In this document: piece after piece, positions 65 to 4,852 of the stretch
Layout of the letters: the number at the start of each line of letters is the position of its first letter
How positions within the stretch are numbered: the stretch's first letter is position 1
Assembly (NCBI GenBank): GCA_963827655.1
Contig: CAWHCF010000023.1
Coordinates: 64,001 to 128,000 of the forward strand
Direction: 5' to 3'
DNA: 64,000 bases
From: an uncultured Acidobacteriota bacterium
Lineage (GTDB): Bacteria; Acidobacteriota; UBA6911
Translations under genes and position numbers: made by a program
Notes under the pieces: model-generated
What the model was told of the DNA's origin: nothing
The model's input: only the letters and a program-made list of their open reading frames with translations
Databases searched by the model: none

Positions 65-152
65 ACGCAGATGGCGTATAGGAAATTCGGACTCTATCGG
101 ACATTCAGCCCGAGCTGATAGCTGACCGCTGATCGCTTAGCGGGGTCTACAC

Positions 153-171
153 TGCGAAATTATCACCAACC
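153..171. repeat. 19-bp direct repeat TGCGAAATTATCACCAACC, copy 1
   Basis: Exact second copy at 845-863. Confidence 0.9.
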
Positions 172-172
172 T

Positions 173-299
173 TGATCGGGACCTTCGCGATGGTGCCCGC
201 CTCGACGCTCCGCTCGATGGGCGCCCACTCCGCGCCCGCTGTAGTGCGCCGTCTTGATCCCGACGATCACGTCCTTGTGCTCGAGGCGCCATCTCGGGC
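173..299 (-). pseudogene. Diverged internal fragment of the amidohydrolase gene (homologous to ~4186-4310)
   Basis: Manual alignment over ~125 bp shows about 6 substitutions and 2 single-base insertions. Confidence 0.9.
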
Positions 300-434
300 G
301 AGACCTTAGTCTAATCAAGCGCGCGGGCCTTCTAACGTCACAATTCGCCGATCACGGTCCCCGCGTCTGCGCAAAAAACCGCTCATCGGGACGGGTCCGC
401 GAGTCTCTCGCATCCGCACAACGCGTGCGATCGT

Positions 435-463
435 TTGACAATTTCACACGTATCCGCCACCAT
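435..463 (+). promoter_or_regulatory. Possible sigma70-type promoter for the structured RNA
   Basis: TTGACA (435-440), 17-nt spacer, weak -10 CACCAT (458-463). Confidence 0.4.
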
Positions 464-496
464 GGGGCGGTCTGCACTTTGCGCCGATGTGATCTC

Positions 497-779
497 AGGC
501 AGGTGCGGCGGCTCTGGTGAGGCTTCGGCGGCCTGAGGAGCCGGGCGGATTGGGTTCCGCCGATTACGGTCACGCCTGGAAAGGAGGTGGTCCAGTGAAT
601 CTGAGTGATTACGTTTGGACGGAGGTGGCGTCCTCGTAAGGGGAACCGCCGGACACGTGGTGCTTTTGCGATATCTGGAAAGGGAACCCGATGAGGGAAC
701 CCAACGCCACCAATGCCCACGGGAAGAGGCCCGCGAAGCGAAAGCAGATCCGGGCCTCTTCTGACTACCGAACCTGCCT
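497..779 (+). ncRNA. Putative structured RNA of unrecognised family
   Basis: Closing stem 497-508/768-779 (11/12 pairs) followed by TCGTTTTT; internal helices 509-514/538-543, 544-549/556-561, 576-580/591-595, 723-733/751-761; GUAA and GAAA tetraloops. Confidence 0.6.
595..639 (+). CDS. Candidate small peptide MNLSDYVWTEVASS (14 aa)
   Basis: AGGAGG at 582-587, 7-nt spacing, GTG start, TAA stop. Confidence 0.35.
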   Translation: MNLSDYVWTEVASS

Positions 780-844
780 TCGTTTTTCAACGCTCCAGCA
801 CTTCAGTTGGACGATGACTCAGTGAGCACGCCGCGCTGAGCCTG

Positions 845-863
845 TGCGAAATTATCACCAACC
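845..863. repeat. 19-bp direct repeat, copy 2
   Basis: Identical to 153-171; preceded by GAGCCTG, which resembles an IS terminus. Confidence 0.9.
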
Positions 864-964
864 CTCGGTCACTCTGCGGCGTCTATTGTCTAGCGCATCG
901 AGAAAAGTAACCGATGCGTGTCTTCATCGAGTCTTCGCGTCTTTGTGGTTATTGGTGCTGAACC

Positions 965-3433
965 ATGCACGATTTGCGTCTCGCCTATCGCGCGCTCCGC
1001 GCGACCCCACTGGTTTCGATCGTGGCAATGCTGTCCCTGGCGCTTGGCATCGGCGCCAACACTGCCATCTTCTCCATCGTCGACAGCCTGCTCTTGCGCG
1101 CGCTCCCCGTGAAGCAGCCCGAGCGGCTCGTCCTGCTCGCCTACGAAAACGATCTTCCCACCGCCTGGACCAACCCGATCTGGGAGCAGATCCGCGACCG
1201 GCCTGATCTCTTCGACGGCGCCCTTGCGTGGTCGTCCACGCGCTTCGATCTTGCCCAGGGCGGCCAGACCGAATTCGTCGACGGCATCTGGGCCAGCGGA
1301 CGCTTCTTCGACGTGCTGGGCGTGCCGGCGATCCTCGGCCGCACCTTCACCGAGGCCGACGACCGGCGCGGCGGCGGTCCTGACGGCGCGGTCGCGGTCA
1401 TCAGCTACAACTTCTGGCAGAGCCGGTTCGGAGGCGCGGCCGACGTGATCGGCCGGTCGCTCACGGTGTCGCGCATACCGTACACGATCGTCGGTGTCGC
1501 CGGCCCCGACTTCTTCGGTCCGGACGTGGGCCGCACCTTCGACGTCGTGATCCCGCTCGGCACCGAGCCTCTGGTCCGCGGAAAAGAAAGCAGCCTGGAT
1601 CACCGGTCGAACTGGTGGTTGAGCGTGATGGCGCGGCTGAAACAGGGGCAGACAGTCGGGTCGGCAATCGCCTCGCTGCGCGCTGTGCAACCGCAGATTC
1701 GCGAGGCGACGATGCCGCAAAAATGGCGGCCGGAGCATAAGGCGAGCTACCTTAATCAGTCGCTGACCCTGAAGCCGGCAGCGACCGGCGCATCCGGGCT
1801 TCGGCGCCGCTATCAGCGGCCGCTCCTGACGATTCTGGTGGTGGTCGGGCTCGTGCTGCTCATAGCCTGCGCGAACATCGCGAACCTGCTGCTTGCCCGG
1901 GCGACCGCGCGCCGGCACGAACTGAGCGTGCGGCTTGCGCTGGGCGCCTCGCGCCTGCGGCTCGCGCGGCAACTGCTGGCCGAGAGTCTCCTGCTGTCAG
2001 GGATGGGCGCGGCGCTCGGCCTGGTCTTCGCGCAGTGGGGCAGCCGCCTGCTGGTCAGCCAGCTCTCCACGCAGACGAACTACGTGTTCCTTGACCTGTC
2101 GCTCGATGGGCGCGTGCTCGGATTCACCGCCGCGGTCGCGATCGGCACCGCGGTGCTGTTCGGCACGGCCCCGGCTTTCCAGGCCGCGCGCGTGCCGCCG
2201 ATCGAGGCCATGAAGGAGCACGGACGCGGGGTCAGCGGCGACGCTCGCGCGAGTCTCGGCAGCGCACTGGTCATCGCCCAGGTCGCCCTCTCGCTCCTGC
2301 TCGTCGTGGCAGCCGGACTCTTCATCCGCACCTTCGCCAGCCTCGCGAACCTGAACCTCGGGTTCGACCGCAACGGCGTCCTCGTCGTTACAATAAACGC
2401 TCAGCGGCTCCAGCTCGAGCCGGCGGCGCGCGCCGCGCTGTACGAGCGCGTGCGGCAGGCGGTTCTGCCTGTGCCGGGCGTCGCAAACCTGGGATTGTCC
2501 GTTATCACACCTGTGAGTGGAAGCGCGTGGAATGACCTGATCGTGCTTCCGGACGGCCCTCCGCTGGCGGAACGGGATCGCATTGCCTACTCCAACATGG
2601 TCAGCCCGGGGTGGTTCGCAACCTACGGGACGCCCATCCGTACCGGCCGTGATTTCACAGAAGCCGACCGAGCGGGCGCGCCGCGCGTGGCGATCGTCAA
2701 CGAGACCTTCGCGCGGCGCTACTTCAATGGCCAGAACCCTATCGGGCGAACGTTCAAGCTGATGGACCGTCCGGACAAGCCCGCTCCTCTGATGGAGATC
2801 GTCGGCCTGGCCGGCGACGCCGTCTATCGCTCACTGCGCGATCCGGTGCCGCCGACGATGTACTTCCCGATTCCGCAGGTGGATGAGCCGCCCTCGTCGA
2901 TGAGCCTCAGCGTGCGCGCGGCCGGCCGATCACCCGCGCTGCTGACCCGCAGCGTGGCCGCAGCCATAGGCGACGTCAATCGCGACTTGTCGCTCACCTT
3001 CCGACCCCTGGCAGATCAAGTCAACGCGGCGGTGATTCAGGAACGCCTGGTCGCGATGCTCTCCGGCTTTTTCGGGGCGCTGGCGCTGCTCCTGGCGGGA
3101 CTCGGCCTGTACGGCGTCACCTCGTACGCGGTGAGCCGCCGTCGCACGGAAATCGGCATCCGCATGGCGCTCGGCGCGGCGCCCGCCGGCGTCGTGCGCC
3201 TGGTCCTGCGGCGTGTCGCGGTCCTGGTGGGAATGGGAGTGATAGCGGGCGCCGGCGCCAGCCTGTGGGCGTCTCGATTCGTCGCGACGCTGCTGTACGG
3301 AACGCAGCCCTGGGACGTGTCAACGCTGACCGCAGCAATAGCGGTGCTCGCGGCCATCGGCGCGCTGGCCGGCTTTCTGCCGGCGCGGCGGGCGGCCAGG
3401 ATCGATCCGGCTCGAGTCTTGCGCGAGGGATGA
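965..3433 (+). CDS. ADOP-family duplicated ABC permease (MacB/FtsX-like)
   Basis: LALGIGANTAIFS, VLLIACANIANLLLAR, EIGIRMALGA and PARRAARIDP motifs; two permease halves; no adjacent ATPase. Confidence 0.95.
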   Translation: MHDLRLAYRALRATPLVSIVAMLSLALGIGANTAIFSIVDSLLLRALPVKQPERLVLLAYENDLPTAWTNPIWEQIRDRPDLFDGALAWSSTRFDLAQGGQTEFVDGIWASGRFFDVLGVPAILGRTFTEADDRRGGGPDGAVAVISYNFWQSRFGGAADVIGRSLTVSRIPYTIVGVAGPDFFGPDVGRTFDVVIPLGTEPLVRGKESSLDHRSNWWLSVMARLKQGQTVGSAIASLRAVQPQIREATMPQKWRPEHKASYLNQSLTLKPAATGASGLRRRYQRPLLTILVVVGLVLLIACANIANLLLARATARRHELSVRLALGASRLRLARQLLAESLLLSGMGAALGLVFAQWGSRLLVSQLSTQTNYVFLDLSLDGRVLGFTAAVAIGTAVLFGTAPAFQAARVPPIEAMKEHGRGVSGDARASLGSALVIAQVALSLLLVVAAGLFIRTFASLANLNLGFDRNGVLVVTINAQRLQLEPAARAALYERVRQAVLPVPGVANLGLSVITPVSGSAWNDLIVLPDGPPLAERDRIAYSNMVSPGWFATYGTPIRTGRDFTEADRAGAPRVAIVNETFARRYFNGQNPIGRTFKLMDRPDKPAPLMEIVGLAGDAVYRSLRDPVPPTMYFPIPQVDEPPSSMSLSVRAAGRSPALLTRSVAAAIGDVNRDLSLTFRPLADQVNAAVIQERLVAMLSGFFGALALLLAGLGLYGVTSYAVSRRRTEIGIRMALGAAPAGVVRLVLRRVAVLVGMGVIAGAGASLWASRFVATLLYGTQPWDVSTLTAAIAVLAAIGALAGFLPARRAARIDPARVLREG

Positions 3434-3502: not shown

Positions 3503-4852
3503 TCAGGGCGTCCTGCGGGACCCGCCCGAACGCCCCGCGCCTCGGGTCCCATCCCAGCGGGGATCACCGGACGTGGTATAGTCCGGCGGCAGCGTGTTCC
3601 AGTCGGGCCGGCCCAGGCCATTGAAGTCGTAGACCACCTTTCCGTTGCGCAGCGTCATCTCGCAGGTCAGCCGCTGGTTGCCTCGCAGGCGGGCGCCGTG
3701 CATGTCGAGGTAGCCGAAGCTACCCTTCTCCAGCCGCAGCACCGCCACGTCGGCCGGCGACCCGACCGAGAGGTTGCCGAGTTCCTCGCGCTGGATCTCC
3801 CGCGCCGGGTTCCAGGTCGAGCGCGCGATGATGTCATCGACCGACAGCCCCAGGGCCAGAAACTTGCTCATCACGTTCAGCATGTCCTTCATGCCGGCGT
3901 TCATGCTTCCCGTGTGCAGATCGGTCGAGATGGAATCGGGAAGGAAGCCTTCCTTGATGGCCGGCACCGCAACGCGCCAGACGAAGCTGCCGCCGCCATG
4001 CCCGACGTCGAAGATCACGCCGCGCTTGCGTCCCTCGTAGAGCGCGGGGTTCAGGCGGCCGGTCGAGGCGTCGAGCTCCGCCCGCAGTCCGGAGTACACG
4101 TGCGTGTAGATGTCGCCTTTTCGCAGCTTCCGTGTGACCGCCTCGGCCATCGAGCGCTCGGCCGATGCCCGGCCAAAATCGACCATGATCGGGATCTTTG
4201 CGATGGTTCCCGCCTCGACGCTCCGCTCGATAGGCGCCCACTCCGGCCCGCTGTAGTGCGCCGTCTTGATCCCGACGATCACGTCCTTGTGCTTGAGCGC
4301 CATCTCGGCCGACGGCTTCGCCTCCATGTCGGCGAGATCCTGCTCGTACTTCCCGCCGCGCATCCCGTGGCCGACGATGTTCAGGAACGCCAGTACGCGC
4401 GTCCGCGACCGGTCGATGATCCGGTCCTTGAAATCCGGGAAGTTGCGCCACCCCGAGCTGCCGGCGTCCACCACGGTCGTGACGCCCGACCGGAACGTGA
4501 ATCCGTCCGGGTAGACGCTGTTGTCGCCCGCGTAGGAACCTCTCTCGCCCGTCCCGGCGTAGACGTGAACGTGGATATCGATGAGTCCCGGGGTGATGTA
4601 AAGGCCGGAAACGTCGATGACCTTGAACGCGCGGGACGGCTCGATCTTGGACTCGACCGCCGCGATCTTGCCGTCCTGAATGGCGACGTCGCGCACGGCG
4701 CTGATTTTGTTTTTGGCATCGATCACGTGGCCTCCGCGCAACAGCAGGTCATACTGCGCCTGCTGTGCCGGCGCCACGGCCGACAAAAGTATCGTCAGGA
4801 ACAGCGCCGCGAGCGGTAACGCCGGGCGCCTGAAACTCTGTTTGCTTGTCAT
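3503..4852 (-). CDS. Amidohydrolase/deacetylase family metallohydrolase (dihydroorotase-like) with signal peptide
   Basis: PGLIDIHVH, VGIK, FDVGHGGGSF and ISTDLH motifs. Confidence 0.9.
   Translation of the reverse strand: MTSKQSFRRPALPLAALFLTILLSAVAPAQQAQYDLLLRGGHVIDAKNKISAVRDVAIQDGKIAAVESKIEPSRAFKVIDVSGLYITPGLIDIHVHVYAGTGERGSYAGDNSVYPDGFTFRSGVTTVVDAGSSGWRNFPDFKDRIIDRSRTRVLAFLNIVGHGMRGGKYEQDLADMEAKPSAEMALKHKDVIVGIKTAHYSGPEWAPIERSVEAGTIAKIPIMVDFGRASAERSMAEAVTRKLRKGDIYTHVYSGLRAELDASTGRLNPALYEGRKRGVIFDVGHGGGSFVWRVAVPAIKEGFLPDSISTDLHTGSMNAGMKDMLNVMSKFLALGLSVDDIIARSTWNPAREIQREELGNLSVGSPADVAVLRLEKGSFGYLDMHGARLRGNQRLTCEMTLRNGKVVYDFNGLGRPDWNTLPPDYTTSGDPRWDGTRGAGRSGGSRRTP

Follow-up and report, generated by a model that had tools for sequence, protein, structure and literature searches.

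A ~300-nt RNA gene of an uncultured Acidobacteriota bacterium with the design of the alphaproteobacterial rre small mRNAs

Introduction

What is the purpose of a bacterial RNA that offers the ribosome an uninterrupted 16-nt complement of the 16S rRNA 3' end? This question is raised by a locus in the window, i.e. the whole 64,000-nt stretch of DNA analysed here, which belongs to contig CAWHCF010000023.1 (assembly GCA_963827655.1) of an uncultured Acidobacteriota bacterium (UBA6911). In a preliminary description of this DNA, the locus was presented as a stand-alone structured RNA that either captures 30S subunits or acts as a dual-function RNA. The analysis reported here revealed that it is a real, free-standing, single-copy RNA gene of approximately 300 nt. 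This is well supported, since covariation among relatives, metatranscriptome contigs and the strands of neighbouring genes agree that the stand-alone structured RNA proposed earlier is both conserved and expressed. Judged by the published description of the rre small mRNAs of Alphaproteobacteria, this RNA appears to be their larger relative in other phyla; its design is known, while its leader is new.

Extended Shine-Dalgarno box and the 14-codon reading frame

The extended Shine-Dalgarno (SD) box, AAAGGAGGTGGTCCAG, was found at positions 580-595 (+ strand), where it had been placed originally. As also claimed, it is complementary over 16 nt (15 Watson-Crick pairs and one G:U pair) to the 16S rRNA tail, here that of the genome itself, whose 16S rRNA gene is located on another contig and terminates with ...GGCTGGATCACCTCCTTTCT. 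This is the sole occurrence of AAAGGAGGTGGTCCAG in the 64-kb window, and in a shuffle control (with up to 2 mismatches allowed) the mean number of matches was 0.04, with at least one match in 4 of 100 shuffles. The last base of the box is the first base of a GUG codon (position 595), which had been overlooked together with the open reading frame (ORF) that follows it. This mini-ORF (MNLSDYVWTEVASS, positions 595-639, + strand) has a GTG start, 14 codons and a TAA stop (637-639), and its frame is conserved in relatives. Because a conserved 14-codon ORF opens at this GUG, the box at 580-595 is a real, if extreme, ribosome-binding site.

BLAST searches detected the element in 4 of 40 related genomes, and the alignment of these four relatives revealed conserved blocks, a GTG right behind the box, a 14-codon frame and a stop in the same place. 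A pattern composed of two conserved blocks matched at least 119 stretches in one-genome-per-species contigs; 119 scan matches, the window copy and the four relatives constitute the 124 pattern-found loci, for which all counts given in this text hold among the matches listed. An ORF of 13-15 codons is present in 123 of these loci (the exception is cut by the end of the locus), and the gaps between the SD and the second box are in-frame only, with insertions and deletions in multiples of three. The pattern, which allowed gaps of 18-26 bases between the blocks, fixes part of the ORF, and therefore a further set was collected with a covariance model (R1) consisting of the 5' domain and the ORF. 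This set comprises 40 model-found loci: 22 of the 23 hits outside the window's own genome in a sample of 151 genomes of its phylum, and the 18 lowest-scoring of 40 hits in the phylum holding a Krumholzibacteriia carrier (with the centre genome left out).

In all 40 model-found loci the SD is followed by an ORF of either 14 (26 loci) or 15 codons (14 loci). The start codon is GTG in 34, TTG in 5 and ATG in 1 of them (thus 39 of the 40 are non-ATG), and the stop codon may be TAG (27), TAA (10) or TGA (3), always in frame. Some loci carry 1-3 extra bases in the spacer before the start without any loss of frame or ORF length. In this set, the uninterrupted complement of the 16S tail (G:U allowed) measures 9-18 nt; it reaches at least 15 nt in 32 and at least 16 nt in 22 loci and extends to the start codon in 23, so an rre-like complement of at least 16 nt that reaches the start is typical, not universal. 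The two free positions of the box are occupied exclusively by A/G and by C/T, respectively, in 124 of 124 pattern-found loci, and pairing with U and G of the 16S rRNA is therefore preserved. Among five carrier genomes with differing SD flanks the 16S rRNA gene was found in three, and all three tails are the same as that of the window genome.

Comparison of close relatives revealed a three-base periodicity of codon changes (304 at third, 88 at first and 133 at second positions), although the pairs compared are non-independent. In these pairs the synonymous share is 0.42 in frame, versus 0.08 and 0.30 in the other frames, while family-wide there is no synonymous excess (29% in frame versus 16% and 34%). 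The members share the peptide pattern D-[KR]-[HC]-G-[LS]-x-E-V-A-S-[SP], and the N-terminal half of the peptide varies freely between clades. The codons of the C-terminal EVAS are invariant at all three positions and sit in an RNA helix (P5, described below), and the constraints on the RNA and on the peptide are therefore entangled.

The second SD-like sequence noted originally, GGAGGTGG, is indeed present at 621-628 (+ strand), within codons 9-12 of the ORF. It is fixed by design in the pattern-found set, and in a few model-found members it is replaced by AAGGTGG; its GGTGGC core is thus universal, but its SD-like character is not. The internal GGAGG would have an initiation-like spacing once a ribosome stands at the last codon; as some members have AAGG, this is not relied on here.

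RNA structure and covariation

The structure was assessed with 72 representatives (mutually less than 88% identical), in which P2, P2a, P3, a pseudoknot, a long-range helix and the terminator were counted. Altogether, 94.6% of the cells are paired, versus 34-49% with slid partners, compensatory changes occur in 29 of 41 pairs, and none of 500 shuffles attains the observed values. Homologues thus exist and covary, the two points that the preliminary description had wanted checked. The RNA is beyond chance because of the conservation and covariation among its relatives, not because of the folding energy of the whole stretch, which is not significant (z = -1.38; 9 of 100 shuffles fold equally well).

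The 5' domain is built of helix P2 (509-515/537-543), which encloses hairpin P2a (521-523/531-533), and of hairpin P3 (544-561; GGCGGA/TCCGCC with a conserved UUGGG-type loop), all on the + strand and all supported by covariation. In 69 sequences, P2 is 94.2% paired with compensatory changes in 6 of 7 pairs, and P2a is 92.1% paired with such changes in 3 of 3. For P3 the values are 97.8% and 5 of 6 pairs, e.g. G-C replaced by A-U in 20 sequences. The loop of P2a (525-530, TCGGCG) forms a pseudoknot with 573-578 (CGCCTG), which thus spans 525-578 (+ strand); 5 of its 6 positions pair in the window copy, and its 3' strand ends immediately upstream of the SD. In alignment A4 (69 sequences) 94.4% of the pseudoknot cells are paired and 3 of 6 pairs change on both sides, the slid controls for the whole structure being 36-50% paired. 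Family members L008, L089 and L015 (alignment A3) have ~30 nt inserted, presumably as an extra hairpin, behind P3 and ahead of the pseudoknot's 3' strand. A protein gene on the opposite strand was considered and ruled out, as the 5' domain has loops that vary by 1-2 bases, and no frame would survive this.

A variable 5' hairpin, P1, is supported by its helix length in cognate versus non-cognate combinations (6.09 versus 5.46; 0 of 200 shuffles as high). In the clade of L010, L011, L029 and L038, P1 contains CCUCCUU(CC); this copy of the 16S tail could mask the clade's own SD, minimum-energy folds pair the two, and such a pairing is not seen in the window copy.

The ORF itself is part of the fold. 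The sequence GGTGGCGT (624-631, codons 10-13) and ACGCCACC (704-711) are exact complements, and the alternative pairing suspected there proved to be the best-conserved long-range helix of the family, P5 (624-631/704-711, + strand). Its 3' strand belongs to the conserved box GGGAACCCAACGCCACC (695-711). P5 (GGUGGCGU/ACGCCACC) is 99.3% paired in the 72 sequences and near-invariant, with a double change in one pair, and its median ensemble probability is 0.83 (71 sequences). A further helix, P4, recognised in single folds, joins ORF codons 7-9 with the bases following ACGCCACC; its length is 5.79 in cognate and 5.13 in non-cognate combinations (0 of 200 shuffles as high). Between the two strands of P5, the fold places the stop codon of the window copy in the GNRA loop of hairpin CCUC-GUAA-GGGG (632-643, + strand). 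Family members have their stop codon inside a hairpin loop or next to one, and 36 of 71 minimum-energy folds leave it fully unpaired.

A terminal G+C-rich hairpin (724-761, + strand; -27 kcal/mol, z = -4.8) occupies the position of the family terminator, a helix that is 93.4% paired with compensatory changes in 11 of 11 pairs; a consensus scan of the + strand of the window called no terminator. This hairpin contains GC-GAAA-GC and, with that at 632-643, accounts for the two GNRA-capped hairpins reported earlier. The closing helix proposed for the window copy (497-508/768-779) can also be found in the minimum-energy fold, with 11 of 12 positions paired, and it is followed by the U-rich TTCGTTTTTC, its copy-specific 3' strand and this tail together covering 768-788 (+ strand). 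The CTGGA/TCCAG stem exists as well, but it is weak (-5.1 kcal/mol) and not conserved among relatives. Both the closing helix and this stem are particular to the window copy.

Promoter and expression

The TTGACA candidate is located at 435-440, as described previously. Family comparison places it as the -35 element of a promoter (435-463, + strand) with a 17-nt spacer and a -10 element CACCAT (458-463), from which transcription is predicted to start near position 470. The arrangement TTGACA/TTGACT-17-CAnnAT occurs in 85 of 115 distinct family loci among the matches listed, and the distance from the end of the -10 element to the SD peaks at 115-119 nt (41 loci; 118 nt in the window copy). It emerged from the family comparison alone: a stricter consensus scan of the + strand of the window called no promoter.

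The stretch is present in 20 public runs from 17 studies, and six of these runs are metatranscriptomes. Contigs of four RNA runs from four soil metatranscriptome studies were placed on window positions 150-1150. They span from 490 or 495 to 772, 843 or 858 at a depth of 15-56, or cover 490-719 piecewise, and none of them covers 150-489 or 864-1000. DNA carry-over is argued against because the flanks are silent in the RNA contigs. As far as the transcript anticipated in the preliminary description is concerned, the RNA is covered and its flanks are not, but the 3' ends differ between contigs. The observed 5' end of the RNA-derived contigs (490, + strand) is common to three runs from three studies, with the fourth run starting at 495, and in one of the three adapter sequence abuts this position. 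As the predicted start is 20 nt further upstream, the end at 490 may be a processed one. Assembly from small soil metatranscriptomes without the flanks suggests that the RNA is among the more abundant transcripts in these soil bacteria, which grow slowly.

The independence of the gene is also visible in its neighbourhood. Of 101 loci among the matches listed, 55 have the best downstream ORF on the strand of the RNA and 46 have it on the other. Neither long nor short neighbouring ORFs form a family shared beyond lineage synteny, a given downstream family being present in at most 16 of the 124 loci.

Relation to known RNAs

The closest counterparts are the rre small mRNAs of Alphaproteobacteria, rreB of Bradyrhizobiaceae and rreR of Rhodobacterales, as they are portrayed by Hahn et al. 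(RNA Biol 14:1353, PMC5711450). According to this description, rreB is a stand-alone mRNA of 165 nt with its own promoter and terminator, in which 17 nt perfectly complementary to the 16S 3' end extend onto the first base of a GTG start; in the rre RNAs in general, the complement is at least 16 nt long and flanks the canonical SD on both sides, and the ORFs have 14 (rreB) and 18 codons (rreR) (PMC5711450). Most of the rreB RNA resides in the ribosome fraction, and it sediments together with 30S. Its translation is weak, because it is impeded by the extended SD as well as by the GTG, and a GUG to UAG change prolongs its half-life from 10 to 37 min (PMC5711450). A 20-fold overproduction left growth unchanged, with ribosomes far outnumbering the RNA, and the authors argue that simple ribosome titration is not the main function of rreB (PMC5711450). 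The RreB and RreR peptides are conserved clade-wise and not between clades, the genomic context is not conserved, and the analogues reported there come from four alphaproteobacterial orders only (PMC5711450).

Set against this description, the window RNA shows the same design: a small, free-standing transcript (larger than rreB) with its own promoter and terminator, a 16-nt complement ending on the first base of the start codon, and a GTG start followed by an ORF of 14 codons, which is exactly the length in rreB. As in the rre RNAs, its peptide is conserved within clades only and its genomic context is not conserved. The differences are also clear. The window RNA has ~300 nt instead of 165 nt; it places ~100 nt of pseudoknotted, covarying structure before the SD, whereas the rreB box lies near the 5' end; and, unlike in rreB as described, a long-range helix with a conserved 3' box ties up the second half of its ORF. 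Its family occurs in Acidobacteriota, Krumholzibacteriia, Fibrobacteraceae, Latescibacteria and Eiseniibacteriota, not in Alphaproteobacteria. The literature searched holds no description of such RNAs outside Alphaproteobacteria, and searches by the sequence of the box returned 16S primer listings and oligonucleotides alone.

At gathering thresholds, Rfam 15 yielded 0 matches in the whole window. The scan suggested with the preliminary description, which had left an existing Rfam family possible, thus brought no characterised family above threshold. In E-value mode weak matches only were obtained, the sole notable one being RF01867 (CC2171; 26.7 bits versus a cut-off of 75). CC2171 is the sole Rfam model that recurred in three diverse members (window, 26.7 bits; L010, 27.5 bits; L051, 22.7 bits; all below the gathering score of 75), and the RNA locus is its only match in the window's own genome. 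The consensus of this model opens with GAAAGGAGGUGAUCCAGUG, that is with the same box and GUG as the window RNA; a helix a few bases past the GUG closes a multi-stem body, and a terminator stands at a similar distance. The model has no 5' domain, unlike the window RNA. CC2171 is a Caulobacter sRNA reported as Northern-validated in Methylorubrum (bioRxiv 10.1101/2022.01.24.477521). We infer that CC2171 may itself be an rre RNA, a link drawn neither there nor by Hahn et al.

The preliminary description could match the RNA to neither tmRNA, 6S nor a riboswitch, and the window contains no such match. A tmRNA or 6S RNA in disguise was rejected separately, as neither RF00023 nor RF00013 matched in the window and the canonical genes (tmRNA, 170.9 bits; 6S, 84.7 bits) are located on other contigs of the same genome. 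A trans-acting seed was rejected as well: complements of the 3' box (with at most 1 mismatch) occur 17 times in the window's own genome and 22 times in the reversed control. A parallel of another kind comes from the cry3A mRNA of Bacillus thuringiensis, whose STAB-SD, an SD without a start, stabilises the RNA. As there, the 16S-tail complement of the window RNA may chiefly hold the 30S subunit and not drive protein synthesis. However, the STAB-SD is situated in the leader of a long mRNA with no start codon behind it, whereas the window RNA stands alone and has a conserved start and ORF.

Proposed mode of action and alternative explanations

We consider it probable that the window RNA belongs to the rre type of mini-mRNAs, docks ribosomes and owes its larger size to a folded 5' domain. 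From a sigma-70-like promoter, a transcript of four parts would arise: (i) a pseudoknotted domain of ~100 nt, whose last strand lies a few bases before the ribosome-binding site, (ii) an SD box able to engage 14-18 bases of the 16S 3' tail and merging with a weak GUG start, (iii) a 14-codon ORF with its second half paired with the conserved 3' box and (iv) a terminal hairpin. By analogy with rreB, the 30S subunit would dock very tightly via the extended SD. The full pairing would be incompatible with a start codon in the P site because it takes up the spacer as well as the start codon's first base, a point that Hahn et al. likewise note (PMC5711450). Hence the 14-18 bp would have to melt partly before the GUG could reach the P site, and the full pairing together with the GUG would keep initiation slow. 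An elongating ribosome would have to unzip P4/P5 from about codon 7 and would end at the stop in the hairpin loop; translation would thus leave a remodelled and probably destabilised RNA. The pseudoknot abutting the box could gate docking.

Among these steps, we infer tight 30S binding, weak translation and start-codon-dependent decay from the rreB experiments, and that the ribosome unzips the helices and the 5' pseudoknot domain gates docking is our own suggestion. In the cell, the RNA could act through ribosome control, the 14-residue peptide, or both; a role at the RNA level, with translation as a part of the mechanism, is favoured.

Several observations weigh against this proposal. Docking on 30S and weak translation are borrowed from RNAs of another phylum, the kinship with rre is judged by the published description, and rreB as described there has no long folded leader. 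With CC2171, the SD-GUG box and the terminator align, but the body does not, at scores of 22.7-27.5 bits against the required 75. The 16S complement is only 9 nt long in 2 of the 40 model-found members. Concerning the structure, covariation cannot prove P5 because it hardly varies, P4 is weak in the window copy (4 pairs), and the terminal hairpin of this copy has no U-run directly behind it. The RNA contigs give neither strand nor true ends; their 5' end at 490 is 20 nt past the predicted start and their 3' ends disagree. Finally, the patchy carriage in the own family (3 of 40 further genomes) means that the RNA is dispensable.

It is conceivable, though we think it unlikely, that the 14-residue peptide is the product that matters and that the structure and the extreme SD set its amount and timing, in which case it would resemble small proteins or trans-acting leader peptides. 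The conserved frame, length and stop, the third-position periodicity and synonymous excess among close relatives, the shared D-[KR]-[HC]-G-[LS]-x-E-V-A-S-[SP] pattern and the clade-wise conservation of RreB and RreR (Hahn et al., PMC5711450) all fit such an effector. However, the pairs behind the periodicity are non-independent, family-wide the synonymous excess disappears (29% versus 16% and 34%), and RNA pairing explains much of the conservation, with the EVAS codons in P5 and codons 7-9 in P4. The N-terminal half is free to differ between clades, and a pseudoknotted leader of ~100 nt, a non-ATG start (39 of 40) and an over-long SD would be odd for a peptide gene. The capture model of the preliminary description, taken as a decoy that sequesters 30S subunits without being translated and has its ORF by accident, seems to us improbable. 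The frame is kept in 40 of 40 loci despite start shifts of 1-3 bases, coding periodicity is present, 20-fold overproduction of rreB had no effect on growth while ribosomes far outnumber the RNA (PMC5711450), and the patchy carriage in the family speaks against core ribosome housekeeping. What a decoy would account for is a complement far exceeding the need of a working SD, the expected incompatibility of its full pairing with a start codon in the P site, the abundance sufficient for assembly from small soil metatranscriptomes and the co-sedimentation of rreB with 30S (PMC5711450). Of the two functions offered at the outset, dual function is the closer one, and a simple sponge is supported only in part.

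We regard as very improbable a cis-acting leader, i.e. a riboswitch or leader-peptide attenuator that controls the downstream gene, here the putative permease gene at 965-3433. An aptamer-like pseudoknot beside the SD, an ORF of leader-peptide size, mutually exclusive pairings and a terminator-like hairpin are features expected of such a device, and in the window copy two RNA contigs pass the hairpin, to 843 and 858; yet these contigs stop short of the permease gene and leave 864-1000 uncovered. Across the matches listed, no more than 55 of 101 loci have the best downstream ORF in the same orientation, and beyond lineage synteny no downstream family is met repeatedly (at most 16 of 124 loci). 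Moreover, the flanks differ even within the own family, and no known riboswitch or leader family in Rfam matches.

The docking mini-mRNA proposed above may be compared, in its working and not as a family, with 6S RNA, in that an abundant, structured, single-copy RNA would mimic the nucleic-acid partner of a core machine. 6S RNA targets RNA polymerase and is released when the machine uses it as a template for a short product; the window RNA would target the ribosome, the mimicked partner would be the initiation site and the short product the 14-residue peptide. Carried further, this analogy leads to a speculative picture to which we give little credence: a class of ribosome-directed regulatory RNAs in at least 5 phyla, the ribosome counterpart of 6S. 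In it, 30S subunits would be parked via the entire 16S tail, the 5' pseudoknot would gate docking by sensing the growth state, a protein or a ligand, and translation of the 14 codons would free the ribosome, unzip the RNA and mark it for decay, rre and CC2171 being trimmed versions.

Distribution and genomic neighbourhood

According to the record titles, among the matches listed, the RNA occurs in Acidobacteriota (Thermoanaerobaculia, Vicinamibacterales, Terriglobia and others) and also in Krumholzibacteriia, Fibrobacteraceae, Latescibacteria and Eiseniibacteriota. With model R1, exactly one copy was found in 24 of the 151 sampled genomes of the window's phylum, where entire families are either positive (5/5, 6/6, 2/2, 2/2) or negative (0/8, 0/10), and a single copy was found in 40 of 81 genomes of the phylum holding a Krumholzibacteriia carrier. 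Within the own family, R1 detected the RNA in 3 of 40 other genomes (4 of 41 with the window's own), always in single copy, and the flanks of these carriers have nothing in common with those of the window. The plasmids and phages searched contain no match to the RNA.

In the window, positions 169-312 duplicate 4182-4323 at 92-100% identity, the latter stretch being internal to a gene at 3503-4852 (- strand), and an exact 19-nt direct repeat (153-171 and 845-863) brackets both this gene fragment and the RNA gene. The repeat and the gene fragment give the impression that a local duplication or insertion brought the RNA gene along, which agrees with its patchy carriage in the family and with flanks that are unrelated. 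The metatranscriptome contig of one run tracks the window to position 843 and continues with 73 bases of different sequence resembling the 19-nt repeat; because the contig diverges there, a close relative has a different 3' flank at 843.

Downstream, an ORF of 822 codons (965-3433, + strand) starts 170 nt after the RNA; its N-terminus is hydrophobic and resembles an ABC-transporter permease of the MacB/FtsX type. Conserved bits of this ORF (1029-1083) attract metatranscriptome contigs of other organisms. In a group of 24 of the 124 loci, among the matches listed, a divergent upstream ORF of ~330 codons is common (L034: 1914-2960, - strand). It has no Pfam match at E <= 0.01, and its sharing is most likely a matter of lineage synteny.

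Biological significance

The rre mini-mRNAs, which bind the small ribosomal subunit more tightly than ordinary messages and are barely translated, have so far been a matter of one bacterial class. The same design, composed of an SD complementary to the whole 16S tail, a weak start and a frame of ~14 codons, is now seen, as an expressed gene with one copy per genome, across many Acidobacteriota and several distant phyla, and because it recurs across phyla it can be argued that it is selected and not a quirk. The covarying pseudoknot domain beside the docking site provides a new handle on these RNAs and could be a sensor. If the peptide is the effector, few conserved bacterial proteins would be smaller; should docking and translation-driven release hold true, these bacteria would possess a new layer of control over ribosome availability.

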